From Raja brachyura (taxonomy: Eukaryota): a stretch of 64,000 nt of DNA. This document shows positions 1 through 55,867 of the stretch, piece after piece; the stretch's first letter is position 1; every line of letters begins with the position of its first letter. The position numbers and the translations under genes were made by a program. The notes beneath the pieces are model-generated. The model ran no database searches, was not told the origin of the DNA, and saw only the letters and a program-made list of their open reading frames with translations. The stretch is taken from assembly GCA_963514005.1 (NCBI GenBank), contig OY740784.1, forward strand, positions 94,736,001-94,800,000, given 5' to 3'.

Positions 1-524
1 GATTTATGTGATGTTCCAATCCATTTAGTTCACCATTAAGCTCTTGAAATTCCTCACTGAATCCTTTTGCCTCACTGCATCTTCCCTCCTTTAAGACCCT
101 GCTTAATAAAAGGCACCATTCTGAGCAAGCGTTTAGACAGACCTCCTAACCTCTACTTTCCCTTGTTGTTATGTCTGTTTTATGATTACACTGTGAAGTA
201 CCTTGGAAGATACTCCTACATTAAAGGTGGTAGATCAACGGGGATTGTGGTTATTTGTTGGATGGGTTTATAGTTGTTAGTGAGATCTGGTACAGATCTA
301 TCAGACACCAATAAGGTGCCAATCCAAAGATAATATTGGGATGGTAGTTCTTCAGGAATTTGTTGACACAAATGCAATACTTACAATGTAAAATATAGCG
401 GATTACTTGGATACTGTTTTGCTAATAATGCTCATGGTTTATGAAGCAACTAGATGCCATTCATGAACAGTTGCCCTGCTTTGAAAGAAAATATATTCTT
501 GAAGACAATGGCACCGTGACACCT

Positions 525-2204: not shown

Positions 2205-2935
2205 TCAAAACCCGCAGATGCTAGAATCTGAAGCATCAAACAAACTGCCAGAGTAATATACAAAGTGCTGGAGTAACTCAGCAGTTCAGACAGCATCCCT
2301 AGAGGACATGGATAGGCCACATTTTGGGTTGGGATTCTTCTTCATACTGATTCGTGTTGGGGAGAAAAGCTGGAAAAGGAGTGGGAGCAGGACAAAGCCT
2401 GGCAAGTGATAGGTGCACACAATGTGCTGGAGTAACTCAGCCGGTCAGGCAGCATCTCTGGAGAAAAAGGATGGGTGACATTTTGGGTCAGACTGAAGAA
2501 AGGTCCCGACCTGAAACATCACCCATTCTTTTTCTCCGGAGATGTTGCATGACCCGCTGAGCTTCTCCTGCACTTTGGTATATATCAGCACCAGCATTTC
2601 TACACGAGTGATAGGTGAGAGTGGTTTTGATTGGCTGATGCCTGAATAAAGGTTTGAGATGAAAGTGAGTAAAGGGGTGTCAGATAATGGGGAAGAAGAG
2701 TGAAATGCGAAGCTAGAAAGGATATAGTTGGAAAGGGATGGGGATACCAGGAGAAGTGGAGTGGGAGAGAGAAGAAAAAGGGGGAGGAGGGTGTTGTTAC
2801 CTAAAATTGGAGAATTTGATGTGCGAAACCATGTTTGCGAAATAAAGAAGACATCTCGGTGTCATAGGGTGTAAAGCCTCACCTTAGGAGAAAATGCAGC
2901 AGAGAAAGAGAAATTGAGGACAGATGCAGTTGCAG
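2205..2935 (-). mobile_element. Penelope-like element 3' region, with a nested palindromic pLTR-derived insert (~2415-2605)
   Basis: pLTR motif gctggagtaactcagc...cagcatc; purine-rich 3'UTR; minus-strand ORF end ..IKFSNFR* near 2797-2822. Confidence 0.6.
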
Positions 2936-3160: not shown

Positions 3161-4604
3161 AAGGAGGCTGCGAACGCAACAGTATTCAGACTTGCAGTGG
3201 ATGACTACCCCCGTGTCTGCACCATCACCAATTTTCATGCCATCTCAGACCATGTTGTACTAGGGACATATTTGTGAGGCATCCCCAAGAAAATACTGTT
3301 TTGATCCAGCAACATGAATTGAGAGGCTTGCAAGATAATAGATGTGGCTAAGTCCTGCTGCCCTATTGCCTGGGGCCCTCCCATCCAACAGCCAGCTGAC
3401 CTGCCTCAGTCTCGCAGGATACTGCCAGGAAATGGAGACAAAGAATGATAATCAGGTCCTGCCATTCAACGCAAGACGAGATTAGGGCCCATATGTTGTT
3501 ACTTAAGATTTATCTCTGTCGTTGAAGTGAACATTTCATTGGGCTTAAACAGTGCACTAAACAGGGTATTATAATTTAGAACAGTTGTGGAGCCAAATAG
3601 AATCTGTCATAGATCAAGCTTGATAGGCAAAACTAAATTAGGCACTTCTGTTCCCCAGAGACTGTAGGAATGAAAACCTTATTTTAGCCCACAAACTTTT
3701 CTATTAACATATTAAAAAGTATAGCTTTAGATCCATTAATATCTGTTACGTTTCTGACCTTTTACCTGACAGCACTTTCAGTGTTGCTATAATGGAAGAG
3801 TTTCATGTAATGCTTTGTGTCAGCAACTCTTACTGCCAGATTCCTTTTTTGGCCTTTTAATCACTGCTAACAATGCTCCTGGAATTCATTCTACAGTGAG
3901 TTTCCTCCCACTTCCCCTGGAGGCTTCACTGATTTGATTTGCCATTCTTATTTTAATATATCTTGATTTCCATTTCAATTCCTGGTTAATTCCTATTTCT
4001 CACCCTCCACTTACCTTTGTGCTCTGCATCAATATATTCCATTGATCTTCAGCCAAACAGGTACTAAATAAAAGCCCTTAGTACCTGCACAGTGTTGTGC
4101 TGAATATAGTTGCATTCTGTTTGCTATTATTATAGGCACAATCTTTTCCACCAAATGCTATGTGAACTATTTAAAATGATCAAATCAAGATATGAACTAT
4201 TCCTTGTGGTTACCTTGCCACACCAGGTCATGAAATAATCATCTGCTGCAATCTTTAATTTAAAAACTGCTTGGGTGTTATATCAACTTGCCTAAACAAT
4301 GTTCTCATTTTTTATTCCTTTCTTGTCTCTTAATATCAAATAATTTCCTTGCTTTTTGATAGTGTGTATAACATTCCTCGTAGTAAAAACTATGTAGTAA
4401 AATTGGACAATAAGGTAGATACAAGAGATTAAAGATACTGGAATTTTGAATAATAAACCAGACTGCTTGAAGAACTCAAAGGGACAGTCAGCATCTATGG
4501 ATGGAAATGGACAGACGACATAATGGGTTGGAAAATTAGTTCAGACTGAGGAAGTGTGCGTGTGAGTGAGTGTAAGCTAAATAGAGTTAATGCCTGGTCA
4601 ATAA

Positions 4605-5047
4605 TCTTCTGCCCATGGATAGTCAGGGTCCAAATAGCACCTCATATTCTGCTTGGGGAGTCTGCATCCTCTGGGCTTAAACATTGAATTTTCTCAATTC
4701 TGTTAACCCAGGCTGCCTCCTCCCCTTCCCACCTCTCCCTCAGCCCTCGGGCCCTGGCATTCCTTCTCTCTCTATCTCCCCCCCTCCCCCCCCACCCAAG
4801 TCGCACTAGCTTCTCATTTTCACACTACAAACAGCTTACAATGGCCTGTTTCCTTTATCATCAATACTTTTTTGCATATCTTTCATTCACTGTTCTTTAT
4901 CTCTCCACATCACTGTCTATATCTCTCGTTTCCCTGATCCCTGACCAGTCTGAAGAAGGGTCGCGACCCGAAACGTCGCCCATCTCCTTCGCTCCTTAGA
5001 TGCTGCTGCACCCGCTGAGTTTCTCCAGCTTTTTGTGTAACCCTCCA
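4605..5047 (+). mobile_element. Penelope-like element 3' end (GIY-YIG C-terminus, 3'UTR, pLTR with hammerhead core)
   Basis: ..HLIFCLGSLHPLGLNIEFSQF followed by a pyrimidine-rich UTR and cagtctgaagaagggtcgcgacccgaaacgtc. Confidence 0.75.
4948..4980 (+). ncRNA. Minimal type I hammerhead ribozyme core (PLE-associated)
   Basis: CUGAAGA (4950-56), extra A, stem II GGGU-CGCG-ACCC, GAAACGUC (4970-77) with palindromic ACGU stem III. Stem I is only ~2 bp. Confidence 0.6.
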
Positions 5048-5049
5048 AA

Positions 5050-5218
5050 TAGGTTTATGTGATAGGAGTAGAATTAGGCCATTCGGCCCATCAAGTCTAC
5101 ACCACCATTCAATCATGGCTGATTCATCTAACCCCATTCTCATGCCTTCTCCCCATAACCTCTGACACCTGTACTAATCAAGAAACTATCTATCTCTGCC
5201 GTAAAAATATCCACTGAC
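5050..5218 (-). mobile_element. CR1 3' end fragment
   Basis: gtagaattaggccattcggccc...ttctccccataacc is the reverse of a CR1 3'UTR. Confidence 0.7.
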
Positions 5219-5428
5219 TATGTTTAATATACAGAAAAAGGAAGGGGCAGAGAGAGCAGAAAGGAAGGTAGATGACAAGTTGGAAATTGAAGGACACAAG
5301 CAAAGGTGCTGGCCGAAGGTTATGTTGAAGGTTGGTGAGTAGCAAATGATAACTGGGGGAGATTTAAATAGAAAACAAAATAATTTATTTTAGGGAATAT
5401 GAAAAACAATAAAAAGTTGTTAAGATCT

Positions 5429-5618
5429 GCGTAGGGAGGAACTGCAGATGCTGGTTTACACCGAAGGCAGACACACAATGCTGGAATAACTCAGCGGGAC
5501 AGGCAGCATCTCTGGATAGGACTGGTGACGTTTCAGGTCAATATCCTTCTTCTCAACCCAAAACGTTACCCATTCCTTCTATCCAGAAATGCTACCTGTC
5601 CTGCTGAGTTACTCCAGC
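5429..5618. mobile_element. Palindromic Penelope-pLTR-derived short insertion with 14-bp TSD
   Basis: TSD agttgttaagatct at 5415-5428 and 5619-5632; two inverted pLTR halves meeting in the hammerhead region. Confidence 0.75.
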
Positions 5619-7010
5619 AGTTGTTAAGATCTTATTGCCGCATTATCCACTTTCATTGGGCACAACTGTTAATATTGGGATGACTGTTGTTAGGTCAGTA
5701 GATAGTCTCAGATCCCAGAAATGCATTTGGTTCACAACAATTGCCTTGATACATTCTTTAAGTCTGGCATTAGGTCAGCCAACAGACCACAGATGAAGGA
5801 TAGAGATTTGTCCCTGAATTTCCCTAGATAAAATTACAGTACTGTTGATGGTGTTTGCTTTTAGAATCAGAGAGTCATACAGCATGGAAACAGGCCTTTC
5901 AGCCCAACTTGCCCATACTGAGCAAGATGCTCCATCTACACTAGTCCTACTTGCCTCCATATGGTCCATATCCCTCTATATCTTTCCTATCCATGCACCT
6001 GCCCAAATGTATTTTAAATGGTGCTGTAATACTTGCCTCAACTACCACCTCTAGCAGCTCATTCCGTATACCTACCACTCTCTGTGTGAAAATGTTGCCC
6101 CTCGGGTTCCTATTAAATCTTCTAACTTAAACCTACATCCACTGGTTCTTGATTCCCCTCATGATTTTATACACCTCTATAAGATCACTCGTCATCCTCC
6201 TTTTGCAAGAAATAAAGTACCAGTCAGCCAACCTATCCCTATAGCTCAGGCCCTGAGGTCCTAGCAACTTCATCGTAAATCTTCCATGCACTCTTTCCAG
6301 CTCAACAACATCCTACCTATAGCAGGGATCTGAACACACAAATCTGAACACACAATACTCCAATTGCAACCTTGTGCAGATGTTTGTGCAAAACATAACA
6401 TCCCAACGCCTACACTCAATACGCTTACTGATAAAGGCCTATGTACTGAATGCTTTCCTGACTACCCTATCTACCTGTGATACCACTTTCAACCAACTAT
6501 GTACCTGCACGCCTAGATCCCTACGCTTTAAAACACCCCACAGGCTTCTGACATTCATTATGTAAGTCCTGCCCTGGTTTAACTTTCCAAAATGAAAACC
6601 CTTGCACTTATCTTCATTAAACTCTATTACCCATTCCTCTGCCCACTTGTCCAACTGATTGGGATCCTGCTGTAAGTGTTGATAACTATCTTCACTGTCT
6701 ACAATACCACCAACTTTAGTGTCATCTGCAAACCTACTAATCATGCCTTCTACATTTTAATCCAAATCATTGAAGCAAACCATAAACAGCACCGCACCAC
6801 TGCACCGATCTTTGAGGCACACCATGAGTCACAGTCCTCCAATCCGAGAAACAACCTTCCATGATCACCCTTTGGTTTCTTCCATGAAGCCAATTCTCTA
6901 TCGAATCGGCGAGCTCTCCCTGGATCTCATGCGATCTAACGTTCCAGAGCAGCCTTCCCTGCAGAACCTTATCAAATGCCTTGTTGAAGTCCATATAGGC
7001 AATGTCTACA

Positions 7011-7800
7011 GCTTCCGGTGGGCGGCGCGACTCTTGTCGCAGCGACCTCTGCAGTCCGTCTGTCTTTTTTTTTTCCGTCTCGTTTTGAGTGTAGTTATAG
7101 TGTTTTTTTTTATTTGTGTATGTGTGGGGGGTGGGGGGGCGGGGTGGGGGAAACCTTTAAAATTGTTTCCCTGTACGGAGGACCCGACCTTTTCTCTGTC
7201 AGGTCTCCGTTGTCGTTGGGGCCTAGCACCGCGGAGCGGCTTCCGACTGGACCTGGGGCTCCAGTCGCGGGGCTGCGGGCTACTTACCAATGTGGAGCTG
7301 GCCGAGTTCGGAACGGGAGGAGCTGTCGTGGCGCGCTGCTGTTGCCTGACCCCGGAGATTCGGAGGCTCCAGCTGCAGGTCGACGGTGACATCGGGAGCT
7401 CGCGGGTCCCTGGTGGGAGACCGCTTTTCGGAGGTCCCGCGGCGGCAACTTCTCCCGCCCGAGATGCGGGGTTGAAAATGACCTGGAGCGGGCCCGCTGG
7501 GGGCTCCAACATCAATACCAGGAGAGGGGCCTTACATCGCCCCGCGTGGCCTTAACTGCCGCGGGACTTATTTACCATCACCCACCGGGGCTTTGACTCT
7601 GACATCGGGAGGAGAATGGGGAGTGCAGGGGAGAGATAAGGCTTTGCCTTCCATCACAGTGAGGAGGAGCTTCACTGTGATGGATGTTTGTGTAAATTGT
7701 GTTGTGTCTTGGTTCTTTCTTGTTTGTATGACTGCAGAAACTAAATTTCGTTTGAACCTCAATGAGGTTCAAATGACAATAAATGGTATTGTATTGTATT
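7011..7800 (+). mobile_element. GC-rich non-autonomous retroelement with Rex1-type 3' tail
   Basis: Cleanly interrupts the CR1 RT. CpG-rich body; ends atttcgtttgaacctc-aat-gaggttcaaatgacaataaa and (gtatt)3, matching the Rex1 tail at 525-600. No TSD seen. Confidence 0.65.
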
Positions 7801-8786
7801 TGCTCCCATCAACATTTTTGGTTGCTTCTTGAAAAACCTCAATTAGATTCATAAGACATGATCGCCCATGTACAAAACCATACTGACAATCCCAAATCAG
7901 CTCCTGTTTATTCAAATGCGTATACATCATATCCCTCAGAATCCTCTCCAGTAACATGCCTTCCACAGATATGTCAACTCACTGGTCCATAGTTCTCAGA
8001 CTTTTCCTTGCAGTCCTTCTTAAACGTTCACTACCCTCCAGTCATCTGGCACCTCACCCTTGTCTTATGATGATTCATAGATTTTAGCACGAGTGCTTGC
8101 AATTTTTCTTCTCTAGCTTCCCACAGTGTCCTTGGATACATCTGATCAGGCCCAGGAGATTTTGTCGAACTTCATATGCCTAAGGACATTCAGTACCTTC
8201 TTGACCATATTACGGATTGTTCTCAAGACATTTTCATTAACTATCCAAAATTCCCCAGTCTTCTCTCTCCATGGTAAAAACAGATGGGAAATACATATTG
8301 AGTACCTTGCCCATCTCCTGTGTCTCACACAGAGATGACTGCATTGGTTTCTGAGGGCCCGTATTCTCTCTCCAATTACCCTCTTTCCCTTAATTTTACA
8401 TATAATTTGCTTCATTTTTCCTTAATATTATTTAATCAAGCTATCTCCTGCTCCCGGTTTGCCCTCCTGATTTCCTTCTTAAGTATGTTCCTCAGTCCCA
8501 GAAACTCCTCCGGGGATACAATTGGTCCCAGCTGTCCATACCTGCAGGAGGCCTAATTATTTTTCCTGACCAGAGCCTCAATTTTGCTTGTCGTCCAACC
8601 TTCCTTAATCTCAATTGCTTTGTCCTTCACTCTAACAGAACACACATGCCCTGACCTCTTGTCATCACACTTTTAATAACATCCCACTTTCTAGACGTTC
8701 CATTGCCCGCATTCAACTTATTCCAATCAACTTGAGCAATTCCTGTCTAAAACCATGAGAGTTGGCCCGTCCCAATTCAGAATTTG

Positions 8787-9315
8787 AAAAAATGACATGT
8801 TGAAGACTTCCTTCGACTGTAGAAGACCTCCTTCGACCTCCTTCGACTATGTTGAAGACTAGCTACGACTAGCTACGACTAGCTATGACTAACTTCGGGA
8901 AAATTGGATACAAAATAGTGGAGAGTGAAGACAACCTCCTTCGATCTCCTCCGACCTCCCTTCGACCACCCTTTGACTATGATGAAGACTATCTATGACT
9001 ACCCTCGACCAGCTTCGACTACCCTTGATTACCTACGACTAACATGCCGACCTACTACGACCTATTATGACTAAACCTACGAGTAAATAAAGTATCGTTT
9101 TTTACCATGGCAACCGTTTTTTACTCGCGGGCATTTTTTAACATGTTGAAAAAACCGCCGCAACCTAGCTGAGGTCTCGAATACGCAGAGACCACTCTCG
9201 AGCATGCAGGAGAGTAATCAGACCCCCTATGACCTTGTGTCGACCATGCTGCATATTAGTAGAGGACAAACTCGCCAGAACTCGCGGATTAGGTCACCGA
9301 AGTGGGACCTGCCCT
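8787..9315. mobile_element. Harbinger-type non-autonomous element (left TIR missing) with internal CGAC-rich short repeats
   Basis: Right end AAGTGGGACCTGCCCT followed by TAA; many cttcgac/ctacgac units at 8805-9075; interrupts the CR1. Confidence 0.6.
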
Positions 9316-10802
9316 TAACTATTTTAAAGCTAATGGAACAGTGGTCACTGGCACTGAAAAGCTCACCCACAGTCACTTGCCCTTCCTAATTTCCTAAAAG
9401 TAGATAAAGCTTTGCCTTCTCTAATGCAGTGCCTTCTATATTTTGCCTGAAGAAACTTCCCTGAACATATTTGACAAATTCCATCTAAGCTCTTGGATTT
9501 ATGACAGTCCCAATTTATAGTTGGAAAGTTAAAATTCCCCATTATGACAAACCTAAGTACCCAATTCCAGCTTCTACATCCAAGAGAGCTTTTCAATAGA
9601 GAAATTAGAAGTTTGGTGATAAGAAACAGAATAACACTCAAAATGTTATGCAATTGTTAAATAACACTTTTGATCCCTGGATTCTGATATATTCAAGACT
9701 GACAAAAGGAGACAACAGAAGATTAAAATCTTTAATCTGTTAAATGAACCAGCCTGATAACCAGTTGAGTAATGGTCTGTTAATTCCCTCTTCATTTTAC
9801 AATAAATTCTATAATTTACATGTTGGGAAAGTATTCAGCCATGGAGTTAATAGATCTGTCATTCTGGCTATTCTGAAGGGAACAGTGAATATTCAGCCAC
9901 AACTACACATGTCCAGGTCTTGGACATATCACATAATAAGTCTCAAACTTATAATAAGTGTCAGCATGTTTTCATCATTGTGCTATGTTACAGAGCTCCA
10001 GATAAGTTCCCCCAGCCTTCCAATGGAATATCTGCCTCTCTGATTTTACATGTCAGACCTGAAATAGGATGGGGAATAATTTCTTTCCAATGGGGATTCT
10101 TGGCCTAGATTAAATGTCTCTGAACAAATGTTGACAGGAGACAAAGCTCCATCCTTAGCTCTCCTTCATGTCAAATGCTCTCATGTCATTTATAAAGGGG
10201 AGGGGTTTTTTAAACTGTAGTTTTTTTATTTTTTTATTTACTCTGGTGAGATGCTAAAATATAGACTTTCAGTGGGCTCCCCATCATCCCAAATAACGGG
10301 CAGCACATTTAAGATTTGGCGAGAAAATTAGATTGTGAATGATTTTAACAGCTTACTGTTTAAGAAAAGGGTAGTTTGCTAAACTGAAAGGCACAAAACC
10401 TAACAAAATTTACAATACATTTAAGGTGAGAAATAACTTACATTTATAGTCATGGAAAAAACACTGCATTACATTATCTTGATCACTTTCAATAATGAAC
10501 ACCATGATGGATGAGAATAAAAGCAGCTGAACCATTTTAGTGCTCTCAGCTACCTTTGAGTGACATTAATGTTTTACTGCATCTCAAAGACTAGCCTTTT
10601 GAAGTGAAAATGGACTTCAATAAAAGACATAGCACTGAAGATCTGAAATAAAGAATATTGGAAAGGATAGCAGAGCCAAGCTACATGCAGTAAGTTAAGT
10701 GCTTGAGTCTTGGAGGCATTGCGTTAAACATGATTTTTTTTAAAGAGTATAGCTGTCAAATTCAAATAAAAGCTTGTCATGCAACAAATTAATTTTCAAG
10801 TA

Positions 10803-12406
10803 CAGTGGTTTGCAAAAGTATTTATACCCCTTGAACTTTTCCACATTTTGTCACGTTATAACCATAAACATAAATGTATTTTATTGGGATTTTATGTGAT
10901 AGACCAACACAAAGTGGCGCATAATTGTGAAGTGAAAGGAAAATTATACATGGTTTTCACATTTTTTTACAAATAAAAAACTGAAAAGTGTGGCGTGCAA
11001 AAGTATTCAGCCCCCTTTACTCTGATACCCCTAAATAAAATCCAGTGCAACCAATTGCCTTCAGAAGTCACCTAATTAGTAAATACAGTCCACTTGTGTA
11101 TAATCTAATCTCAGTATAAATACAGCTGTTCTGTGAAGGCCTCAGAGGTTTGTTAGAGAACATTAGTGAACAAACAGCATCATGAAGCCCAAGGAACACA
11201 CCAGACAGGTCAGGGATAAAGTTTAAAGCAGGGTTAGGTTAAAAAAAATATCCCAACTTTTGATCATCACACGGAGCACTGTTCAATCCATCATCCGAAA
11301 ATGGAAAGAGTATGGCACAACTGCAAACCTACCAAGACATGGCCGTCCACCTAAACAGACAGGCCGGGCAAGGAGAGCATTGATCAGAGAAGCAGCCAAG
11401 AGGCCCATGGTAACTCTGAAGGAGCTGCAGAGATCCACAGCTCAGGTGGGAGAATCTGTCCACAGGACAACTATTAGTCGTGCACTCCACAAATCGGGTC
11501 TTTATGGAAGAGTGGCAAGAAGAAAGCCATTGTTGAAACAAAGCCATAAGAATTCCATTTGCAATTTTCCACAAGCCATGTGGGGGACACAACAAACAAG
11601 TGGAGGAAGGTGCTCTGGTCTGATGAGACAAAAATTGAAGTTTTTGGCCTAAATGCGAAACGCTATGTATGGCGGAAAACTAACACTGCACATCACCCTG
11701 AACACACCATCCCCACTGTGAAACATGGTGGTGGCAGCATCATGCTGTGGGGATGCTATTCTTCAGCAGGGACAGGGAAGCTGGTCAGTGTTTATGGGAA
11801 GATGGATGGAGCCAAATACAGGGCAATCTTGAAAGAAAACCTGTTAGAGTCTGGAAAAGACTTGAGACTGGGGCAGAGGTTCACCTTCCAGCAGGACAAC
11901 GACCCTAAACATACAGCCAGAGCTACAATGGAATGGTTTAGATCAAAGCATATTCATGTGTTAGAATGGCGTAGTCAAAGTCCAGACCTAAATCCAATTG
12001 AGAATCTCTGGCAAGACTTGAAAATTGCTGTTCACAGACGCTCTCCATCTAATCTGACTGAGCTTGAGCTATTTTGCAAAGAGGAATGGGCATACATTTC
12101 AGTCTCTAGATGTGCAAAGCTGGTAGAGACATACCCCAAAAGACTTGCAGCTGTAATTGCAGCGAAAGGTGGTTCTATAAAGTATTGACTCAGGGGGGCT
12201 GAATACTTTTGCACGCCACACTTTTCAGTTTTTTATTTGTAATAAAATTTGGAAACCATGTATAATTTTCCTTCCACTCCACAATTATACACCACTTTGT
12301 GTTGGTCTATCACATAAAATCCCAATACAATACGTTTACGTTTGTGGTTGTAACGTGACAAAATGTGGAAAAGTTCAAGGGGTATGGATACTTTTGCAAG
12401 TCACTG
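10803..12406 (+). mobile_element. Full-length Tc1 IR/DR DNA transposon, Passport-like
   Basis: TA TSDs (10801-02, 12407-08), CAGTG...CACTG ends, ~210-bp TIRs with inner direct repeat (caaaagtattcagcccc), internal transposase. Confidence 0.95.
11182..12188 (+). pseudogene. Tc1 DD34E transposase, disrupted
   Basis: MKPKEHTRQVRDKV..., GRPPK HTH linker, WSDETK, QQDNDPKH, 34 residues, then NPIEN, and C-terminal KGGSIKY. Deletion/stop near 11220-11260 and a frameshift near 11555. Confidence 0.92.
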
Positions 12407-13579
12407 TATCCAGTGAATCGTGAGCATAATTGTTTTGAAATTTCAGTGTTTTTGCAGGCACAGTTTCAGATAAAATATCCATTATTTTCCTATGGTAGCT
12501 TTTATTAACTGTTTCCTACCTTTCCACATTCATGCAAATCAAAATGGAATATAGCAACACTGTGTTAATCAAACACAACTGGGTGTCTTACTGTAATTTA
12601 AAGGATTCAGATATTTCATTCATTAATCATAAACTGGATACTGGCAATCAAAATACTTCTTATGACCTTAACCATTAATTTTGCTCAATGTATTATGTAT
12701 GACCTATATAACACAATAACCTCTCCTATTAACATAATGAACCAGCACTACAAATGTACTGCGTTGACACAAAAGAACAGAAAGTTCATTCCTTACAAGT
12801 TATCTGTGCTAAATTATTGAAGGCATTTAATTATTTATCAGAGATGAGATCATTTGCAATTACATTTCTTTTTTTCAATGAAATGTTTTAATGTTGCAAC
12901 AGTTAATGGAGCAATCCAAATTAAGCAAAAATATCAAGTCCATGTATCTAAAACTTTATGGAAATAGCCTTTAATTTTGTTGAGCCTTTAAAATATATAT
13001 TTTTAACCTCCCATTTGGTCATCCTATGTCATAATTTGACAGGAAGACAAACAGCTGGCGCAGTCCCAAGTCTTGGCAAGGAGACTGTATCCAGTAGTTG
13101 AAGGATGCTTAGTCAGAGCCCTGTGTGACTCTTTAAAAAAAAACGAATTCATAAGGATTGTGCGAGCTATTAAACATGTTCCTGCTGTAGTTTACAATTA
13201 ATTCGGCTGTTATAGCTACTATCAAATAGTAGACTGTTACACCAAAGAGAAAGGCCATTTAGCCCATCAATTTATACTGGTGGTTTATCTTCTTAATAGG
13301 ACACTACTTCAATCTAGTTCTCTTCACAACCCCTGGCTGCTAATATTGCGCATCTTGAGGCAAATTTGCTTTAAATTCTTAATGATCCTAGTTCACTACA
13401 TCTTTGCAAAGAGGAATTGCTCATGTATTTTCACTTCTGATAAAATAGATTTTTTTTTGTGGTGTTGCTATATTGAATAAAGGTTCTCTTGTTACCGACT
13501 CATTGAGTTACGGAATTAATTGCTCTTTGTTTAGGAAAGATCAAACCTTTAGATCTGTTTTGGATTTGGAGTTAATTTG

Positions 13580-19392: not shown

Positions 19393-19729
19393 GCTTTTCA
19401 GCGAACATCTGAAGTGAATTGGCGGTCACATTTAGTAAGGCTGAATGCCAAAGGAATAGTTATACTTGCTGACTATGCAGCCAAAGCCAAGTAATCAAAA
19501 TGGAACTTAATTAAATATTGATCCACACGTATAAATATTATAAGAACATGTAGACGAATATTCAATCTTTAACTAACCCTTGCTGGAATTGTGTAGCACG
19601 TTGGAAATGTATGAAATTTCTTAGCTTTTGTTCAAATGAGGTGTCAATATTATTTACAGATGACTTATGTAGGATAAAATTCTGGTACTGATGTTGCACA
19701 CCCTCTGTACCTTTACCTTATAAAAAGCT

Positions 19730-22581
19730 ATGGTCAATCTTATCATCATCTCTTGTAGTGTTGTAAAAACAAGCCTGAAGGCTTTGTGTCTCAATGCGAG
19801 GAGCATTCGTAATAAGGTGGATGAGTTGAAGGTGCAGATAGCGATTAATGACTATGCTATAGTTGGAATCACGGAGACTTGGCTCCAGGATGACCAAGGC
19901 TGGGAGCTGAACATCCAGGGATATTCAATATTCAGGAGGGATAGACGAAAAGGAAAAGGAGGTGGGGTAGCGTTGCTGGTGAGAGAGGAGATTAATGCAA
20001 TAGAAAGGAAGGACATTAGCGTGGAGGATGTGGAATCGATATGGGTAGAGCTGCGAAACTCTAAGGGGCAGAAAACGCTAGTGGGAGCTGTGTACAGGCC
20101 ACCTAACAGTAGTATTGGAGTTGGGGATGGCATCAAACAGGAAATTAGAAATGCGTGCAACAAGGGTAACACGGTTATAATGGGTGACTTCAATCTGCAT
20201 GTAGATTGGGTGAATCAAATTGGCAGGGGTGCTGAGGAAGAGGATTTCCTGGAATGTATGCGGGATAGTTTTCTCAACCAACATGTGGAGGAACCAACGA
20301 GAGAGCAGGCTATTCTAGACTGGGTATTGAGTAATGAGGAAGGGTTAGTTAGCAGTCTTGTTGTGCGTGGCCCCTTGGGCAAGAGTGACCATAATATGGT
20401 TGAGTTCTTCATTAGGATGGAGAGTGACAAAATTAAGTCAGAAACAAGGGTTCTGAACTTGAACAAAGGTAACTTTGAAGGTATGAGATGTGAATTGGCC
20501 AAGATAGACTGGCAGGTGATTCTTAAAGGGTTGACAGTGGATGTGCAATGGAAGGTATTTAAAGACTGCATGGATGAAGTACAAAAGTTGTTCATACCAG
20601 TTTGGCAAAAGAATAAATCGGGGAAGGTGGTGCATCCATGGATAACAAGGGAAATCAGGGATAGTATAAAAACAAAAGATGAGGCATACAAATTTGCCAG
20701 AAAAAGCAGCCTACCGGAGGACTGGGAGAAATTCAGAATCCAGCAGAGGAGGACAAAGGGCTTAATTAGGAAAGGGAAAATAGATTATGAAAGGAAACTG
20801 GCAGGGAACATAAAAACTGACTGCAAAAGTTTTTATAGATATGTAAAGAGAAAGAGACTAGTTAAAACAAATGTTGGTCCCTTGCAGTCAGAAACAGGTG
20901 AATTGATCATGGGGAACAAGGACATGGCAGACCAATTGAATAACTACTTTGGTTCTGTCTTCACTAAGGAAGACATAAATAATCTGCCGGAAATAGCAGT
21001 GGAACGGGGGTCAAATAAGATGGAGGAACTGAGTGAAATCCAGGTTAGCCGGGAGGTGGTGTTGGGTAAATTGAACGGATTGAAGGCCGATAAATCCCCA
21101 GGGCCAGATAGTCTGCATCCCAGAGTACTCAAGGAGGTAGCCACAGAAATAGTGGATGCATTAGTGATAATTTTTCAAAATTCCTTAGATTCTGGAGTAG
21201 TTCCTGAGGATTGGAGGGTAGCTAATGTAACTCCACTTTTTAAAAAAGGAGGGAGAGAGAAAGCGGGGAATTACAGACCAGTTAGTCTAACATCGGTAGT
21301 GGGGAAACTGCTAGAGTCAGTTATTAAAGATGGGATAGCAGCGCATTTGGAAAGTGGTGAAATCATTGGACAAAGTCAGCATGGATTTACGAAAGGTAAA
21401 TCATGTCTGACAAATCTGATAGAATTTTTCGAGGATGTAACTAGTAGAGTGGATAAGGGAGAACCAGTGGATGTGTTATATCTAGACTTTCAGAAGGCTT
21501 TCGACAAGGTCCCGCATAAGAGATTAGCATACAAACTTAAAGCACACGGTATTGGGGGTTCAGTATTGATGTGGATAGAGAACTGGCTAGCAGACAGGAG
21601 GCAAAGGGTAGGAGTAAACGGGTCCTTTTCAGAATGGCAGGCAGTGACTAGTGGGGTGCCGCAAGGCTCAGTGCTGGGACCCCAGCTATTTACAATATAT
21701 ATTAATGATTTGGACGAGGGAATTCAATGCAACATCTCCAAATTTGCAGATGATACCAAGCTGGGGGGTATAGTTAGGTGTGAGGAGGATGCTTGGAGGC
21801 TGCAGGGTGATTTGGATAGGCTGAGTGAATGGCAGATGCATGGCAGATGCAGTACAATGTGGATAAATGTGAGGTTATCCACTTTGGTGGCAAAAACATG
21901 AGGGTAGACTATTATCTGAATGGTGGCAGATTAGGTAAGGGGGAGATGCAACGAGACCTGGGTGTCATGGTACACCAGTCATTGAAAGTAGGCATGCAGG
22001 TGCAGCAGGCAGTGAAGAAAGCAAATGGTATGTTAGCATTCATAGCGAAAGGATTTGAGTATAGGAGCAGGGAGGTTCTACTGCAGTTGTACAGGGTTTT
22101 GGTGAGGCCACACCTGGAGTACTGCGTACAGTTTTGGTCTCCAAATCTGAGGAAAGACATCCTTGCCATAGAGGGGGTACAGAGAAGATTCACCAGACTG
22201 ATTCCTGGGATGTCAGGACTTTCATATGAGGAAAGATTGGATAGACTCGGTTTGTACTCGATGGAATTTAGAAGATTGAGGGGGGATCTTATAGAAACCT
22301 ACAAAATTCTTAAGGGGTTGGACAAGCTAGATGCTGGAAGATTGTTCCCGATGTTGGGGGAGTCCAGAACAAGGGGTCACAGTCTAAGGATAAGGGGGAA
22401 TTCCTTTAGGACCGAAATGAGGAAAACATTATTTACACAGAGAGTGGTGAGTCTCTGGAATTCTCTGCCACAGAAGGTAGTTGAGGCCAGTTCATTGGCT
22501 ATATTTAAGAGGGCGTTAGATGTGGCACTTGTGGCTAAAGGGATCAGGGGGTATGGAGAGAAGGCAGGTACGGGATACTGA
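19730..22581 (+). pseudogene. CR1 ORF2 (APE endonuclease + reverse transcriptase), single 1-nt frameshift at ~21831
   Basis: APE motifs LNARS, ITETW, YRPP, GDFN, SDH; RT motifs [24 protein letters not shown]. ORFs of 723 aa and 250 aa overlap at the lesion. Confidence 0.93.
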
Positions 22582-23199: not shown

Positions 23200-26105
23200 C
23201 CCTCCATACCCTTTTCATCCATATGCCTATCCAATTTATTTTTAAATGATACCAACGAACCTGCCGCCACTACTTCCACTGGAAGCTCATTCCACACCGC
23301 TACCACTCTCTGAGTAAAGAAGTTCCCCCTCATGTTACCCCTAAACTTCTGTCCTTAATTCTAAAGTCATGTCCTCTTGTTTGAATCTTCCCTATTCTCA
23401 AAGGGCAAAGCTTGTCCACATCAACTCTGTCTATCCCTCTCATCATTTTAAAGACCTCTATCAAGTCTCCCCTTAACCTTCTGCGCTCCAGAGAATAAAG
23501 ACCTAACTTATTCAACCTATCTCAGTAACTAAGCTGTTGAAACCCAGGCAACATTCTAGTAAATCTCCTCTGTACCCTCTCTATTTTGTTGACATCCTTC
23601 CTATAATTCGGCGACCAAAATTGTACACCATACTCCAGATTTGGTCTCACCAATGCCTTGTACAATTTTAACATTACATCCCAGCTTCTATACTCAATGC
23701 TCTGATTTATAAAGGCTAGCATACCAAAAGCTTTCTTTGCCACCCTATCTATATGAGATTTCACCTTCAAGGAACTATGCACGGTTATTCCCAGATCCCT
23801 CTGTTCAACTGTATTCTTCAATTCCCTACCATTTACCATGTACGTCCTATTTTGATTTGTCCTGCCAAGGTGTAGCACTTCACATTTATCAGTATTAAAC
23901 TCCATCTGCCATCTTTCAGCCCATTTTTCCAACTGGCCTAAATCACTCTGTAGACTTTGGAAATCCTCTTCATTATCCACAACACCCCCTATCTTGGTAT
24001 CATCTGCATACTTACTAATCCAATTTACCACCCCTTCATCCAGATCATTGATGTACATGACAAACAACAAAGGACCCAACACAGATCCCTGAGGCACCCC
24101 ACTAGTCACCTGCCTCCAACCCGACAAACAGCCATCCACCATTACCCTCTGGCTTCTCCCATTCAGCCACTGTTGAATCCATCTTGCTATTCCTGCATTT
24201 ATACCCAACAGTTGAACCTTCGTAACCAACCTTCCATGAGGAACCTTGTCAAAGGCCTTACTAAAGTCCATATAGACAACATCCACTGCTTTACCCTCGT
24301 CAATTTCCCTAGTAACCTCTTCAAAAAATTCAAGAAGATTAGTCAAACATGACCTTCCAGGCATAAATCCATGTTGACTGTTCCTAATTAGACCCTCTTT
24401 ATCCAGATGCTTATATATATTATCTCTTCCATTAATTAAAGTATATTTTCCATTAATTTGCCCACCACTGAAGTCAAACTAACCGGTCTATAATTGTAGG
24501 TTTACTCTTAGAACCCTTTTTAAACAATGGAACAACATGCGCAGTACGCCAATCCTCGGGGACTATTCCCGTTTCTAATGACATTTGAAATATTTCTGTC
24601 ATAGCCCCGGCTATTTCGACACTAACTTCCGTCAATGTCCTAGGGAATATCCTGTCAGGACCTGGAGACTTATCCACTTTTATATTTTTTCAAAAGTGTC
24701 AGTACTTCTTTTACTTTGAAACTAATAGTATCCATAGCGACTCTACTAGTTTCCCTTACCTCACATAATTCAAATCCTTCTCCTTGGTGAATACCGAAGA
24801 AAAGAAATTGTTCAATATCTCCCCCATCTCTTTTGGCTCTGCAGATAGCTGTCCACTCGGTCACTCCAATGGACCAATTTTATCCCTTGTTATCCTTTTG
24901 CTATTAATATAGCTGTAGAAACCCTTTGGATTTACTTTCACCTTACTTGCCAAAGCAACTTCATATCTTCTTTTAGCTTTTCTAATTTCTTTCTTAAGAT
25001 TCTTTTTACATTCCTTATACTCCTCAAGCACCTCATTTACTTCATGCTGCCTATAATTATTGTAGATCTCCCTCTTTTTCCGAACAAGATGTCCAATTTC
25101 CCTTGAAAACCAGGGCTCTTTCCAATTTTTACTGGTTCCTTTCAACCGAACAGGACATAAAGATTTTGTACTCTTAAAATTTCCCCTTTAAATGTCCTCC
25201 ATTTCTCTTCTACATCTTTCCCATAAAACAAAATGTCCCAGTTCACTCCTTTTAAATCATCTTGCATCTCATAAAAGTTAGCCTTTCTCCAATCAAAACT
25301 CTCAACCCTAGGCCCAGTTCTGTCCTTCTCCATAATTATATTGAAACTAATTGTATTGTGATCACTGGACCCGAAGTGCTCCCCAACGCATACCTCCGCC
25401 ACCTGTCCCGTCTCATTTCCTAACAGGAGGTCCAGCACTGCCCCTCCTCTAGTAGGCACCTCTATGTATTGCTGCAAAAAACTATCCTGCACACATTTTA
25501 CAAACTCCAAACCATCCAGCCCATTTACAGAATGTGTTTCCCAGTCTATGTGTGGAAAGTTGAAATCTCCCACAATCACTACCTTGTGCTTACTACTAAT
25601 ATCTGCTATCTCCTTACATATTTGCTCTTCCAAATCTCGTTCCCCATTTGGCGGTCTATAATATACCCCTGTAAGTGTTGCTACACCTTTCCCACTTCTA
25701 AGTTCCACCCAAATAGCCTCCCTAGATGAGCCCTCCAATCTATCCTGCCAAAGCACTGCTGTAATATCTTCCCCGACTAGCAATGCAACACCTCCACCTC
25801 TTGCCCCTCCAATTCTATCACACCTGAAGCAACAAAATCCTGGAATATTTAGTTTCCAATCACAGCCCTCCTGCAACCATGTTTCACTGATCGCCACAAC
25901 ATCATACTTCCAGGTGTCTATCCAGACTCTAAGCTCATCCACCTTTCTTACAATGCTCCTAGCATTAAAATATGCACATTTAAGAAACTCCCCATCTCTT
26001 ATTCTCTGTTTATTTCCTTTTTTTTCTTTCTCCTCTTGTGTCCGAGTGCTTCCCTTTTCTGCTTCCTGCCTCCGATCCTGTCTACTAGCTTTTGCTATTT
26101 GCATC
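23200..26105 (-). pseudogene. CR1 ORF2 (APE-RT), multiple frameshifts
   Basis: [54 protein letters not shown] across ORFs 25142-26305, 24861-25145, 24474-24677, 23522-24364, 23330-23515. Confidence 0.9.
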
Positions 26106-27057
26106 CCTCGCCCCAACCATTGTAGTTTAAAGTCTCCCCAGTGGCCTTTGCAAATTTCCCCGCCAGGATATTGGTCCCCCTCGGGTTCAAGTGCAACCCA
26201 TCCTTTCTGTACAGGTCCCACCTTCCCCAAAAGAAGTCCCAATGATCCAGAAACTTGAATCCCTGCCCTCTGCACCAGTCTTTCAGCCACGCATTTATCC
26301 TCCACCTTGCTCCATTTCTACTCTCACTGTCGCGTGGCACAGGCAGTAATCCTGAGATTGTTACCTTTTTGGTCCTTTTCCTCAACTCTCCTCCCAAGTC
26401 CTTAAATCCTCCCTTCAGGACCACTTCCCTTTTTTAACCTATGTCATTGGTACCTATATGTACCACGACCTCAGGCTCCTCTCCCTCTGATTTGAGGATA
26501 TCTTGGACATGTTGAGACACGTCCGAGACCTTGGCACCAGGGAGGCAGACCACCATCCTGGTCTCCCGACTGCGTCCACAGAATCGCCTATCTGACCCCC
26601 TAACAATAGAGTCCCCAATTACTATTGCCCTCCTCTTTTTTTCCCTACCTTTCGGAGCAACAGGGCCGGTCTCTGTGCTGAAGGCCCGTCCTCTGTTGCT
26701 ACCCCCGGGTAGGCTGTCACCCCCATCCATACTCAAACAGGAGTACTTATTTGCCAGGTGTACTGACATTGGAGTACTCACTCGTTCATGCCTCTGCCCC
26801 TTGCCCTTCCTTAGCGTGACCCACAAGTCCCTCTCCTGTGGTTTTGGAGTGACCACCTCCCTATAACTCTCCTCTATCACCTCTTCACTCTCGCTGACCA
26901 GACAGAGGTCATCGAGCTGATGCTCCAGGATCCTAATACGGTCCCTTAGGAGCCCCATCTCTCTGCACCTGATGCAGATGTGGACGTCAAGAGGGCCATC
27001 CGACACCATGACCTCCCACATCTGACATCCAGTACAGTACGCTGCTCTGACTGACAT
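26095..27057 (-). pseudogene. CR1 ORF1 (Zn-finger, coiled coil, SGNH/GDSL esterase), one in-frame stop at 26434-26436
   Basis: CTGC..HICIRC, LRDRIRILEHQL, GDSIVRG, HIGTND, DGLH. The two ORF pieces are in the same frame. Confidence 0.9.
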
Positions 27058-27191
27058 TCTCTCGCCTTACCCTGGATCCGATACCAGTATAATATAATAG
27101 AAACTGCTGTGAGGAATCAGCAGGTATCTGACTCAAACAGCTGCTCCCTCTTGACCTTTAACCTACACCTTTATTATACAAACCAAAAGCA

Positions 27192-27907: not shown

Positions 27908-28866
27908 TAATTACATTAGGAAGTGAGTATTTACCACCATGATATCAGACTAAGGTGCCTTAAAATGCATGGGACATTAACAAGAATTAGGAGAGGAAAT
28001 CCTCGGTCTGACAGCTCCCTATTATTTTAATGAGCTCTCTCACTCACTCAACCAAGACATTTTTACTGTGCATTGTTACCATGAAAATTGATAGGTTTAG
28101 ACTAATAAAAGAAGCGTAGGCACAAAGGGAAAAATGTGCTTATATTTTGAGTAATATCCTTCTCCTCTGTGACAATCATTAAGATTAGATCCAAATCAAG
28201 GTGTCCTCTATTCTTACTCCTTGAAGCTGTTTCCCTCAGTTTATGGTTCCGTAGGCAGTAATGACCCTTCAATATTTCACCAAAAAGCCATTCTTCATGT
28301 GTGAACCTAGATAATGAGTGTCAATGGAGCATTCAATCATCACAGTTAAGCCTGATCCTAGATTCCCCAGTGTCCACACAAGATCAGGGCCATAAGATTT
28401 CTTGCAGGAACAGAAGCAGGGGCACATTTATTTTATATTTATTTTGCTTCTGAGATAAGTGATCCTAAGTGTCAATTACAAGCCCTCCGAACTAGACCAC
28501 AAAGTGCATCTCCAGTTTATCTATTAAAAAAGTTGAACAAATTGTGAATGTGAATATTAAAAAAAAAATTAAAATATGAAATCTTCTAATTATTAATCAC
28601 CAACGAAAACACTTAAAAACTATAAAATACAGAAGCCGTGGATCATAATCACCTATTCCTCGGCCCACTCTTTGTCCTTCATCCACTGATTTCTGATGTA
28701 GCATAATGCAAATTGCAGCTCTTCCTAGCAGGTGAGGAGGAGGGTTTTCCCCCTCTTCTGAAAGCAGTGAATCACAATGATGATGGCTTCACTCTGTTCC
28801 CACTTGTCAGATAAGTATTAGACCTGTCAGGCGTTTTAAAGCTGAAATGAACCTTGTTTCTTCCAA

Positions 28867-29000
28867 TGTGTAGGAAGGAACCGCAGATGCTGGTTTAAAC
28901 CGAAGATAGACAAAAAAAGCTGGAGTAACTCAGCGGGACAGGCAGCATCTCTGGAGAGAAGGGATGGGTGATGTTTCACTTCAACATCCTTCTTCAGACC
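28867..29000 (-). mobile_element. Penelope-pLTR-derived short element
   Basis: gtgtaggaaggaaccgcagatgctgg...cttcttcagac; ends at the hammerhead CUGA. Confidence 0.75.
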
Positions 29001-30540: not shown

Positions 30541-31549
30541 ATTACAGCACGGAAACAGGCCATCTCGGCCCTTCAAGTCCGTGCCGAACAACATTTTTCC
30601 CTTAGTCCCACCTGCCTGCACTCATACCATAACCCTCCATACCCTTCTCATCCATATGCCTATCCAATTTATTTTTAAATGATACCAACGAACCTGCCGC
30701 CACCACTTCCACTGGAAGCTCATTCCACACCGCTACCACTCTCTGAGTAAAGAAGCTCCCCCTCATGTTACCACTAAACTTCTGTCCCTTAATTCTAAAG
30801 TCATGTCCTCTTGTTTGAATCTTCCCTATTCTCAAAGGGAAAAGCTTGTCCACATCAACTCTGTCTATCCCTCTCATCATTTTAAAGACCTCTATCAAGT
30901 ACCCCCTTAACCTTCTGTGCTCCAGAGAATAAAGACCTAACTTATTCAACCTACCTCTGTAACTTAGCTGTTGAAACCCAGGCAACATTCTAGTAAATCT
31001 CCTCTGTACCCTCTCTATTTTGTTGACATCCTTCCTATAATTGGGCGACCAAAATTGTACACCATACTCCAGATTTGGTCTCACCAATGCCTTGTACAAT
31101 TTTAACATTACATCCCAGCTTCTATACTCAATGCTCTGATTTATAAAGGCGAGCATACCAAAAGCTTTCTTTACCACCCTATCTATATGAGATTCCACCT
31201 TCAAGGAACTATGCACGGTTATTCCCAGATCACTCTGTTCAACTGTATTCTTCAATTCCCTACCATTTACCATGTACGTCCTATTTTGATTTGGCCTGCC
31301 AAGGTGTAGTACCTCACATTTATCAGCATTAAACTCCATCTGCCATCTTTCAGCCCATTTTTCCAACTGGCCTAAATCACTCTGTAGACTTTGGAAATCC
31401 TCTTCATTATCCACAACACCCCCTATCTTGGTATCATCTGCATACTTACTAATCCAATTTACCACCCCTTCGTCCAGATCATTGATGTACATGACAAACA
31501 CAAAGGACCCAACACAGATCCCCGAGGCACCCCACTAGTCACCTGCCTC
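30541..31549 (-). mobile_element. 5'-truncated CR1, same family as 23092-27910
   Basis: 299-aa ORF from [12 protein letters not shown] to the C-terminus, near-identical to 23110-24113. Confidence 0.93.
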
Positions 31550-31698
31550 GTTTCCCTTACACCTGACTTTCAGTCTGAAGAAGGGTTGCGACCCGATACG
31601 TCACCCATTCTCTAGAGATGCTGCCTTTGCTGTTGGGTTACTCCAGCATTTTGTGTCTATCTTCGGTTTAAACCAGCTTCTTCAGTCCTATCCTACAC
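31550..31698 (+). mobile_element. PLE pLTR short element with mutated hammerhead (GAAA to GAUA)
   Basis: cagtctgaagaagggttgcgacccgatacgtcacc...cctacac. Confidence 0.7.
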
Positions 31699-41068: not shown

Positions 41069-41348
41069 GAAAAAGTATCGATGATAAAGGAAACAGGCCA
41101 TTGTAAGCTGTTATACTGTTTCCTTTATCATTGATACTTTTTCGCATATCTTTCATTCATTGTTCTTTATCTCTCCACATCACCGTCTATATCTCTCGTT
41201 TCCCTGATCCCTAACCAGTCTGAGGAAGGGTCTCAACCCGAAACGTCACCTATCTCCTTCGCTCCTTAGATGCTGCTGCACCCGCTGAGTTTCTCCAGCC
41301 TTTTGTGTACCCTCGATTCTCCAGCATCTGCAGTTCCTTCTTTAACAC
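41069..41348 (+). mobile_element. PLE 3'UTR/pLTR insertion with 5' inversion and intact hammerhead core (41220-41247)
   Basis: 28-bp inverted repeat at 41070-41143; CUGAGGA-A-GGGU-CUCA-ACCC-GAAACGUC; body near-identical to 4845-5045. Confidence 0.75.
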
Positions 41349-42077: not shown

Positions 42078-42167
42078 GAAGATAGTCCCAAAATGCTAGA
42101 GTAATTTAGCAGGTTGGGCAGCGTCTCTGGAGAAAGGGTGACGTTTCAGGTTGAAACCCTTTTTCAG
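42078..42167 (-). mobile_element. PLE pLTR short fragment
   Basis: gggtgacgtttcaggttgaaaccctttttcag is a degenerate hammerhead on the minus strand. Confidence 0.55.
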
Positions 42168-51814: not shown

Positions 51815-52445
51815 TCCATCCACAATGTCTCTGCTGGATATGAGGCCAAGTTAAACTATCATATAATCCATATTCCTCCATTCACTGAATATTCATGTGC
51901 CTATCTAAAAACATCTCAAATGCCACTATCATATTTGTTTCCAATACCAGTTCTAACACCACATTCCACACACCTGGCATTTTTGGTGTAAAAACTTGCA
52001 CCATGTATTTTGTTTAATTTTTCTCTGACCTTAAATCTTTGCCCTCTAGGCTTTGACATATCCACCCTGGGAAAAAAAGTTCTGGTTTTTCACCCTATCT
52101 AGGGCTCTCCTAATTTTATACACTTCTACCAGGTCGCTTCTCAGCCTCTGACACTCCAATGAAAATAATCTGAGTTTGTTCAACCTCTCATTATTGCTAA
52201 TGCGCTCTAATCAAGAATCGTTATATTAAGCATAGAAAGGAACTGCAGATGCTGGTTTACGCCGAAGATTGGCACAAAATGCTGGAGTAAGTTGGCGGGT
52301 CAGGCAGCATCTCTAGAGAAAAAGAAGAGATGACATTTCGGGTTGAGTCCTTTCTTCAGACTTCTTCAGTCTATCTTCAGCATTATATTAAACATTTTCT
52401 GCACCCTTTCAAAATCCTCCACATCCTTCTTGAAATTGGGTGCAA
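51815..52445 (-). mobile_element. Old CR1 3' fragment with a PLE-derived insert at 52230-52382 (TSD ttatattaa)
   Basis: CR1 sequence on both sides of the insert; TSD at 52221-29 and 52383-91. Confidence 0.65.
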
Positions 52446-55620: not shown

Positions 55621-55768
55621 GTTAAAGAAGGAACTGCAGATGCTGGAGAATCGAGGGTTACACAAAAAGCTGGAGAAACTCAGCGGGTGCAGCAGCATCT
55701 AAGGAGCGAAGGTGATAGGCAACGTTTCGGGTCGAGACCCTTCTGTCGACCCAGCTTTTTGTGTAACC
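55621..55768 (-). mobile_element. PLE-derived short insertion with 13-bp TSD and terminal inversion, inside an old plus-strand CR1 (55440-55867, 57326-57395)
   Basis: TSD cagggacaattgc at 55608-20 and 55769-81; ggttacacaaaaagctgg inverted as ccagctttttgtgtaacc. Confidence 0.8.
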
Positions 55769-55867
55769 CAGGGACAATTGCAATGTTTAAGAAGCAATTA
55801 GGCAGGTACCTAGAATACGACAGGTTTACAGAAATATGGGCTGAATTGCAGGCAAGTGGGACATGTA

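Follow-up and report, generated by a model that had tools for sequence, protein, structure and literature searches.

Introduction

Minimal hammerhead ribozymes are known from the Penelope-like elements (PLEs) of metazoans, where Cervera and de la Pena (2014; PMC4209133) searched for them with a descriptor that needs a stem I of 3-7 bp. The accessible part of that study gives an unpaired base before G10.1 and a palindrome as general features of PLE hammerheads, reports low dimer activity and proposes, as early as 2014, that the motifs act as dimers. Its Fig. S3 contains a helix I of 2 bp in 6 of 56 rows (Culex, D. virilis twice, D. rhopaloa, D. kikkawai and Oikopleura), each made of two G-C pairs. 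In the Poseidon element PAc of Anolis carolinensis (Frangieh et al. 2024; PMC11167929) cleavage is, according to the available portion of the report, assisted by protein and dispensable for insertion, and two RT starts explain the tail signature of the copies, both strands being extended. Palindromes at inverted junctions have also been noted, and are read in the accessible text of PMC3846280 as self-priming. Neither the motif type nor the dimer idea nor the 2-bp stem is new to the literature.

The literature that we consulted, with few subscription papers and with Repbase and one cartilaginous-fish preprint supplement outside it, holds nothing on the motif of the family described here and, over the same coverage, nothing on 5' ends piling up at a PLE hammerhead. 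The family is a good test case for what maintains such a motif, be it cutting, RNA pairing or the marking of an RNA start; it offers the weakest stem I among those compared, very many copies and young intact masters.

The hammerhead motif and its predicted folding

The stretch of DNA analysed here, which we call the window, is 64 kb long and comes from Raja brachyura. Positions 4948-4980 of its plus strand read, in order, GT / CTGAAGA / A / GGGT-CGCG-ACCC / GAAAC GTC / GCC, with C3 at 4950 and C17 at 4977 in hammerhead numbering, and the CUGAAGA, extra A and GGGU-CGCG-ACCC of the initial annotation were confirmed in letters and placement. The C3-A9 box CUGAAGA and the unpaired A preceding G10.1 (4950..4957) are unchanged in the consensus of all 8 subfamily groups. 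They are followed by stem II (GGGU/ACCC, 4958..4969), whose loop CGCG is found only in the window copy, owing to a private change at 4963; the family loop is CUCG. G12-A13-A14-A15.1 and C15.2-G16.2-U16.1-C17 (4970..4977, numbered as in the accessible part of PMC4209133) include the ACGU palindrome at 4973-4976, which bears out the suggestion of a palindromic stem III suited to a dimer, and the predicted cut site follows 4977. The 3' strand of stem I (4978..4979) is GC here, AC in older subfamilies and AU in the oldest small group. Its 5' strand, G4948-T4949, lies inside a YCAGT block (4946..4949) that is present in all large subfamilies and at which the 5' ends of genomic copies pile up; by its letters, this block looks like an initiator and also like a 3' splice site. 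Stem I of the window copy consists of U.G and G-C, the next positions (A-C, C-C) being mismatched. That 4948-4980 is a PLE pLTR hammerhead motif is nearly certain, and in type it is the minimal type I hammerhead of such a pLTR, sited in a truncated copy of the element.

Rfam covariance models gave 12 matches in the window at E <= 10 with no hammerhead among them, so that the covariance-model match proposed as a check was not obtained; those to miRNA models reflect inverted repeats. The loose pattern CTGANGA-N(1-30)-GAAA occurs 15 times in the window against 7.2 +/- 2.7 by shuffling, with 1 of 100 shuffles reaching 15. Since this is only modestly (about twofold) above chance, the case for a hammerhead rests on the repeat family rather than on the loose pattern. 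Viral contigs scanned with the motif pattern gave 0 matches.

When 58-nt windows were folded as monomers, stem I had a probability of at most 0.003 and stem II of at most 0.25 in 8 of 8 genome copies, compared with medians of 0.18 and 0.9 for metagenome motif copies folded in the same way (122 copies among the matches listed). The predicted folds favour a CGAC/GUCG hairpin or pairing of the core with the linker, which hides the cut site. The window copy itself is predicted to misfold, and would fold worse still because its private loop change allows GCGAC-GUCGC pairing that buries the cut site. As modelled, the hammerhead fold of the family is weak.

Set beside the hammerheads in the accessible part of PMC4209133, the motif agrees in being of type I, in its pLTR site, in CUGANGA, the unpaired base, G10.1-C11.1, GAAA and NUH, and also in the palindromic CG at 15.2/16.2, the mostly dispersed solo copies and the dimer model. 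It differs in a stem I of 2 bp, which is below the 3-bp minimum of the strict min-HHR descriptor and fails it, so that the search of that study, as far as its text is accessible, would miss the family; a family whose intact cores number roughly 10^5 in one genome is invisible to descriptor searches that demand 3 bp. The published 2-bp stems are two G-C pairs, unlike the G-C plus U-A or U.G found here (PMC4209133, Fig. S3), the table of 56 contains no cartilaginous fish, and the copy number estimated for this family far exceeds the 4,000-9,000 that the accessible text gives for coelacanth and frog. The initial annotation had singled out both the extra A and the 2-bp stem: the A is present but is the norm for PLE hammerheads (PMC4209133, accessible part), and the stem is unusual in failing the 3-bp descriptor but is printed for 6 of 56 PLE hammerheads (Fig. 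S3). Judged by its sequence, the motif has the features of published PLE hammerhead variants, 2-bp helix I included, and is a low-end case, not a new one. The Penelope variant of D. virilis is alike in its 2-bp helix I and in an AG just upstream (PMC4209133, PMC2377424, both in part), but it has a 2-nt insert in helix III, a helix II of 6 bp with a bulge and, in the available text of PMC2377424, a proven intron, whereas the splice site here is only a candidate.

The host element

The window insertion (4638-5043, plus strand) is 5'-truncated and lies between 9-bp target duplications, the left one being TCCAAATAG at 4629..4637, repeated at 5044..5052. It opens with the last 22 codons and the stop of an RT-GIY-YIG ORF (4638..4706), the translation of which matches the ORF end of longer copies, and continues through a pyrimidine-rich 3' UTR or pLTR body (4707..4945). 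Measured on family copies, this body has a weak TATA-like TATAT about 30 nt ahead of CAGT and, in the young family, lacks AG over about 110 nt before CAG. Downstream of the motif, a conserved block with an upstream ATG at 5000 and a small hairpin (5000..5043) ends at the first RT-start boundary (+94); the window copy has no tail.

An upstream walk through genome searches reached complete pLTR-ORF-pLTR units of about 4 kb. In three loci (L099, L101 and L102) the motif stands on both sides of the ORF, about 4 kb apart, with a pLTR spacing of 3,989 bp in L099, and an unbroken frame of about 1,200 codons is present in 3 of 20 long loci fetched. L099 encodes a single ORF of 1,191 aa with an RT, DKG and YIDD motifs, a C-terminal GIY-YIG and a long proline-rich N-terminal part. 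Its Pfam matches (RVT_1, E 4e-4; GIY-YIG, E 2e-3) are both under the Pfam cutoffs, and GIY-YIG (PF01541) is above the cutoff on the isolated domain of L019; a structure search with the ORF matched no solved structure. The placement in a Penelope pLTR is right, given the 4-kb pLTR-ORF-pLTR copies, the GIY-YIG ORF end and the element homology, and the element shows the features of EN+ PLEs: an ORF with RT and GIY-YIG, partial-tandem pLTRs, an optional tail and inverted 5'-truncated copies. Ahead of the endonuclease there is a C-X4-C-X2-C linker (CNRKRCYTC) that fits the CX2-5CxxC of Neptune, and the element fits a Neptune-type (or Nematis) PLE, assigned by this linker motif and not by a tree. 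It is like the Neptune-clade EN+ PLEs of Craig et al. (2021; PMC8557442) in combining RT, CX2-5CxxC linker and C-terminal GIY-YIG, and in its partial tandems, inverted 5'-truncated copies and tail at one end, but unlike them, as far as that paper is accessible, in its long proline-rich N-terminal part; Nematis, on the same partial source, carries the same linker as Neptune.

A 41-codon upstream frame runs from the conserved ATG at +51 (window 5000 onward) over element positions +51..+176 (L099:2813-2938) and thus overlaps the ATG of the main ORF (+164), a codon embedded in the element's best donor-like site, AAG|GTATG. If the RNA were cut at C17, both ATGs (+51, +164) would remain on the 3' product.

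Copy number was estimated by a profile search of 80 evenly spaced 10-kb stretches of large contigs (800 kb) of the 2.7-Gb genome, which gave 273 matches, 248 of them scoring at least 25, and 41 exact cores; rough extrapolation puts the genome at 0.8-0.9 million hammerhead-region fragments and about 140,000 exact cores. L350-L356 and L359 belong to a derived composite repeat in which an inverted pLTR pair, bordered on either side by unique sequence common to the copies, was amplified as a unit; the upstream flank of this repeat abolishes stem I entirely. In L373, L374, L376 and L378 (around 1500-1750), tandem units of about 57-66 nt that begin at GAAACGUC and lack the CUGAAGA half follow a complete core. 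Short PLE-derived units with a type I hammerhead are also known as non-LTR retrozymes (PMC7229834; bioRxiv 10.64898/2026.07.22.740005), which in the accessible parts of those sources form head-to-tail tandem arrays with mostly canonical hammerheads, whereas the copies here are dispersed, single or head-to-head, and have target duplications. The window copy was accordingly rejected as a retrozyme, being single, with a target duplication, and not a tandem unit.

Copies of the family in the window

A profile built from 8 window copies matches 16 stretches within the 64-kb window. The second copy of the same young family (41116..41347, plus strand) is tailed and is accompanied by a short inverted UTR piece at 41070-41112. 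Its core at 41220-41247, said in the initial annotation to be the same, is intact and nearly so, but N7 and the loop differ from the copy at 4948, and its stem I is U-A plus G-C. The degenerate copies listed there at 2493 and 31575 and, on the minus strand, near 5525, 28980, 42140, 52340 and 55725 are all present. One of them belongs to a third young copy (55621..55769, minus strand), which is tailed, has a 13-bp target duplication and is 5'-truncated inside the core (55721-55744); a short inverted partner at 55751-55769 ends at +94.

The remaining copies are older. A head-to-head pair occupies 5437..5622 on both strands, with a tailed minus arm (motif at 5527-5554) and a shorter plus arm (5552-5622, found by profile), and a partial tandem combined with a head-to-head pair spans 2257..2582 on both strands around a centre at about 2491 (motif at 2493 on the plus strand; profile matches at 2257-2345 and 2414-2490 on the minus strand). 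Two short tailed copies on the minus strand, 28855..28999 (motif at 28974-28997) and 52237..52362 (52332-52359), begin at the 5' edge of the hammerhead. The copy at 31547..31661 (plus; motif at 31575) has its own UTR end and a mutated A13 (GAAA to GATA), and that at 42081..42167 (minus; motif at 42140-42167) is short and decayed. The profile also picked up 4458-4533(-), 51315-51403(-) and 29085-29222. The last two, together with loci L105, L171 and L047, are relatives of far greater age in which GUU precedes AAC or GAC; it is possible that these had a longer ancestral stem I, the copies being too few and too decayed to show it. A genome search started from a copy of an older family gave no matches, probably because the words of that copy are too frequent.

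Stem I and conservation among subfamilies

The genomic copies fall into 8 subfamily groups that have a common core and differ upstream and in the linker after C17. A stem I of about 2 bp, as first noted for the window copy (U.G plus G-C at 4948), is found in all 8 consensuses, with U-A or U.G at 2.1-1.1 and G-C at 2.2-1.2 (G.U in the smallest group), and the 2-bp stem is a trait of the whole family. In a metagenome comparison, 99 of 122 motif copies (121 loci, among the matches listed) have a stem I of 3-6 bp; this set was chosen by motif pattern alone, whatever the host or element, and contains some duplicates. A helix I of three nucleotides is reportedly enough, as Tabler is said to have found in 1994. 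A longer stem I formed through an internal loop (2 bp, a 2x2 or 3x3 loop and 1-2 bp more) can be drawn in most subfamilies and was discarded, as it is unpopulated in folding.

Across the 8 consensuses, variation affects 8 of 28 core columns and 21 of 22 flanking columns (p = 1.4e-6), a contrast that the ungapped comparison of the flanks inflates, and 5 of the 8 variable core columns are due to two small groups (4 and 7 copies). The other six groups, each with n >= 13, differ at just 3 core positions, namely 13 and 14 (loop II) and C17, which is changed to U, as the NUH rule permits. The downstream 36-nt block has 10 of 36 variable columns, than which the core is not better conserved (p = 1), so that the expected conservation of the core over the neighbouring pLTR holds between subfamilies against the immediate flanks but not against this block. 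Positions outside catalysis (N7, stem II identities) show no more variation than the catalytic ones. Once a copy has been inserted, its catalytic bases decay no differently from the rest (17/1,540 and 62/4,620, p = 0.52), which implies that dispersed copies are neutral and that constraint acts on the masters. Stem I changes between subfamilies preserve pairing (U-A/U.G, and G-C/G.U in the smallest group). Two-sided compensatory covariation in the stems is absent from this genome, and the covariation across genomic copies that had been suggested as a check amounts to one-sided transitions that keep a pair, the bases pairing anyway. One subfamily (L144:4333-4427(-), L142, L179 and L407) has a GUU triplet and a UUCG-type loop II, with U.G in stem II of some copies; all three are changes that hammerheads tolerate.

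Ends of genomic copies and head-to-head pairs

The 3' ends of copies lie at +93..95 or +126..133, and the homology of tailed copies reaches +126..+133 in 28 of 30. At several of the 3' junctions in L320-L349 the target duplication begins with letters common to the end of the tail (AAC/ACA), which hints at short pairing between target and RNA at priming.

At the 5' end, 163 anchored random copies comprise 84 with unique flanks, a class that conceals some copies of rarer UTRs, 53 with an inverted partner and 26 with shared upstream sequence. Thirty copies match L099 without a difference over 98 nt; 16 of them begin 0-7 nt ahead of C3, and the other 14 extend at least 30 nt upstream. When young-family copies were pooled with random and secondary matches, the start lay at -7..+9 of C3 in 33 of 50 and at -8..-54 in none, with about 1 expected at the upstream rate, 30 of the 50 having been selected for containing C3 onward. 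The edge is graded and diffuse, not confined to a single base. At the far pLTR, near-full-length copies that reach the upstream pLTR start at the edge in 2 of 10 cases (-8, +3) and pass -30 in 6 of 10, and one (L085) starts at the cut site. Starts at the two positions after C17 are found in 2 of 248 random copies, and cut-site starts among long copies in 1 of 30 (L085, exactly at N1.1). L085 (L085:396), near full length and starting at the base after C17, is the one candidate for a cleaved template.

Edge starts are independent of the tail (p = 1), and a fixed cDNA length was rejected as their cause, since tailed and untailed copies stop at the same place. The RT would already have passed the structure on reaching the 5' edge, which makes a block by the fold unlikely. 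Two other origins fit the edge better and are not separated by the data: transcripts that begin at the initiator-like YCAGT, and RNA trimmed back to a protected domain. A cap-derived G before AGT was looked for without a clear signature (8 of 18 non-C cases, background about 27%). In two unlabelled sequencing runs from related organisms, loose ends at -4 and -2 top the lists of contig ends, although contigs cannot show starts.

An inverted partner accompanies 7 of the 30 youngest copies, and in each of these pairs the partner ends at +93..95 and the primary at +126..130, with target duplications of 13-15 bp. A rare G at +90 is common to primary and partner in 5 pairs (5 of 153 elsewhere; p = 7e-7), while 2 partners carry A. 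From these ends and the diagnostic base, both arms were probably primed separately. In this small sample both arms of most pairs probably go back to RNA of a single source, and those of some pairs to two different RNAs; the 2 pairs with differing arms suggest two RNAs per insertion. Of the 53 partners in the random set, 15 begin exactly at C3, often with the near-palindrome CAG-T-CTG at the centre, and for 12 inverted arms in the metagenome loci, among the matches listed, the two cores are 2-31 nt apart.

Possible functions of the motif

On balance, the motif is probably a weak ribozyme that is assisted by protein or by dimer formation, is dispensable for insertion and doubles as a marker of the 5' edge of the RNA copied by the RT. 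This reading draws on the anole Poseidon motif, like which, by analogy, it would work. The family resembles PAc, as described in the accessible part of PMC11167929, in two internal RT starts defining a 30-40-bp tail, in an uncut RNA template and in having no RNA ends at the cut site. PAc differs in belonging to the Poseidon clade and in an ORF that starts inside the hammerhead, where the present element has its main ATG at +164 and, opening at +51, an upstream frame of 41 codons; for PAc, cleavage with the help of protein has been demonstrated (same source and part), whereas the motif here is known from its sequence.

In active elements the hammerhead would fold only with the element protein or with a second RNA. 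Much of the template RNA would begin a few bases before C3, through an initiator-like YCAGT or through trimming back to a protein-protected domain, and a start so close to C3 would leave little pairing room for stem I. The RT-endonuclease may then bind the hammerhead-hairpin-tail domain, nick the target and prime at an internal position of uncut RNA, a course demonstrated for the anole element. If two RNAs lie within one insertion complex, the ACGU palindromes would gain a partner without a tandem copy 4 kb away. Cleavage would be occasional, serving to process tandem or read-through transcripts, and would not be required for insertion. A role beyond cleavage, raised in the initial annotation as repurposing, is plausible because the copies have uncut RNA as their template and begin at the motif's 5' edge.

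It is also possible, if rather unlikely, that the ribozyme is catalytically dead and that its 32 nt are kept as an internal DNA promoter and/or a protein-binding site, with the initiator YCAGT, a G at +24 and GTC at +29..31 as promoter parts and a fold that pairs GAAGAAGGG with the pyrimidine-rich linker. The consensus assigned to these three parts is one that we assume, and its matches are loose. The fixed identities at non-catalytic sites and the absence of covariation agree with a dead ribozyme, as do predicted folds that bury the cut site (CGAC/GUCG hairpin or core-linker pairing), the practical absence of copy ends at that site (2/248) and an equal spacing in 6 of 6 reference copies, one with a TATA-like word at -32 and two with GC boxes; an internal Inr/DPE promoter in Penelope and Inr-like words in rotifer pLTRs are on record in the accessible parts of PMC2377424 and PMC3846280. 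Against this, every large subfamily retains all catalytic bases, the changes seen being those that hammerheads tolerate; the same 21 bases are fixed in motifs of other animals with 3-6-bp stems, although the search pattern selects for them; and the anole motif likewise fails alone yet cleaves with protein (PMC11167929, accessible part). More doubtful still is that the hammerhead is a pairing and boundary device more than an enzyme, such that two template RNAs beginning at its 5' edge are joined through their ACGU palindromes and primed on opposite target strands at +94 and +130, the cDNAs meeting around CAG-T-CTG. Such a device can be likened to a retroviral dimer-initiation site; if real, it would leave stem I free to shrink to 2 bp, selection keeping dimer pairing and protein binding and not cutting, and would account for the head-to-head, one-tailed insertions typical of PLEs.

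A very unlikely alternative to an assisted ribozyme is that CAG|T before the core is a 3' splice site and that an upstream exon, once spliced in, completes stem I and activates the ribozyme. YAG|T does follow a pyrimidine tract in all subfamilies, about 110 nt upstream are free of AG in the young family, and an intron of D. virilis ends beside helix I (PMC4209133, PMC2377424, both in part); the intronless D. virilis form, however, still has 2 bp (PMC4209133, Fig. S3). Unlike at an exon joint, the edge at the 5' side is gradual, and the pyrimidine before CAGT is retained in 29 of 33 unique-flank copies that have these letters. The 12 best donor-like sites, among which AAG|GTATG at the ORF start ranks first, yield no more than 1-2 bp of stem I, and 3-4 bp come from only 6 of 118 GT sites, all poorly scored under a weight table that we take to be appropriate. 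As the best donors leave 1-2 bp and no genomic copy shows an exon of the element joined to the acceptor, splicing was rejected as the completion of stem I; an acceptor at CAG|T may be real yet not mend the stem. Contigs from eight sequencing runs of other organisms, six presumably of RNA and two unlabelled, cannot show absence; they contained no GT..AG joint onto U2.1 among the best 15 of 144 and the best 15 of 234 joints. That the motif cleaves host or other RNAs in trans is hardly credible. The copy number is very high and the hammerhead architecture can be split, but 2 bp of recognition on each side of the cut would be too little for binding or selecting a substrate, and stem I is predicted to be unpopulated even in cis; of the dimer or trans action first envisaged, the palindrome suits the former, and recognition of only 2 + 2 bp speaks against the latter on foreign RNA.

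Other repeats in the window

LINE remnants with AP endonuclease and RT frames, presumably of CR1/L2 type, are found at 19724-22581, 55963-59828 and 23522-27066 (Pfam matches on 19724-21898), and a 19-bp tandem array at 27135-27544 adjoins the 5' end of a LINE. A Tc1/mariner-type transposase remnant (DDE_3) at 11227-12188 is accompanied by inverted repeats at 10801-11022 and 12187-12408, and an inverted pair at 42494-42856, which has ends in common with it, looks like a derived miniature element.
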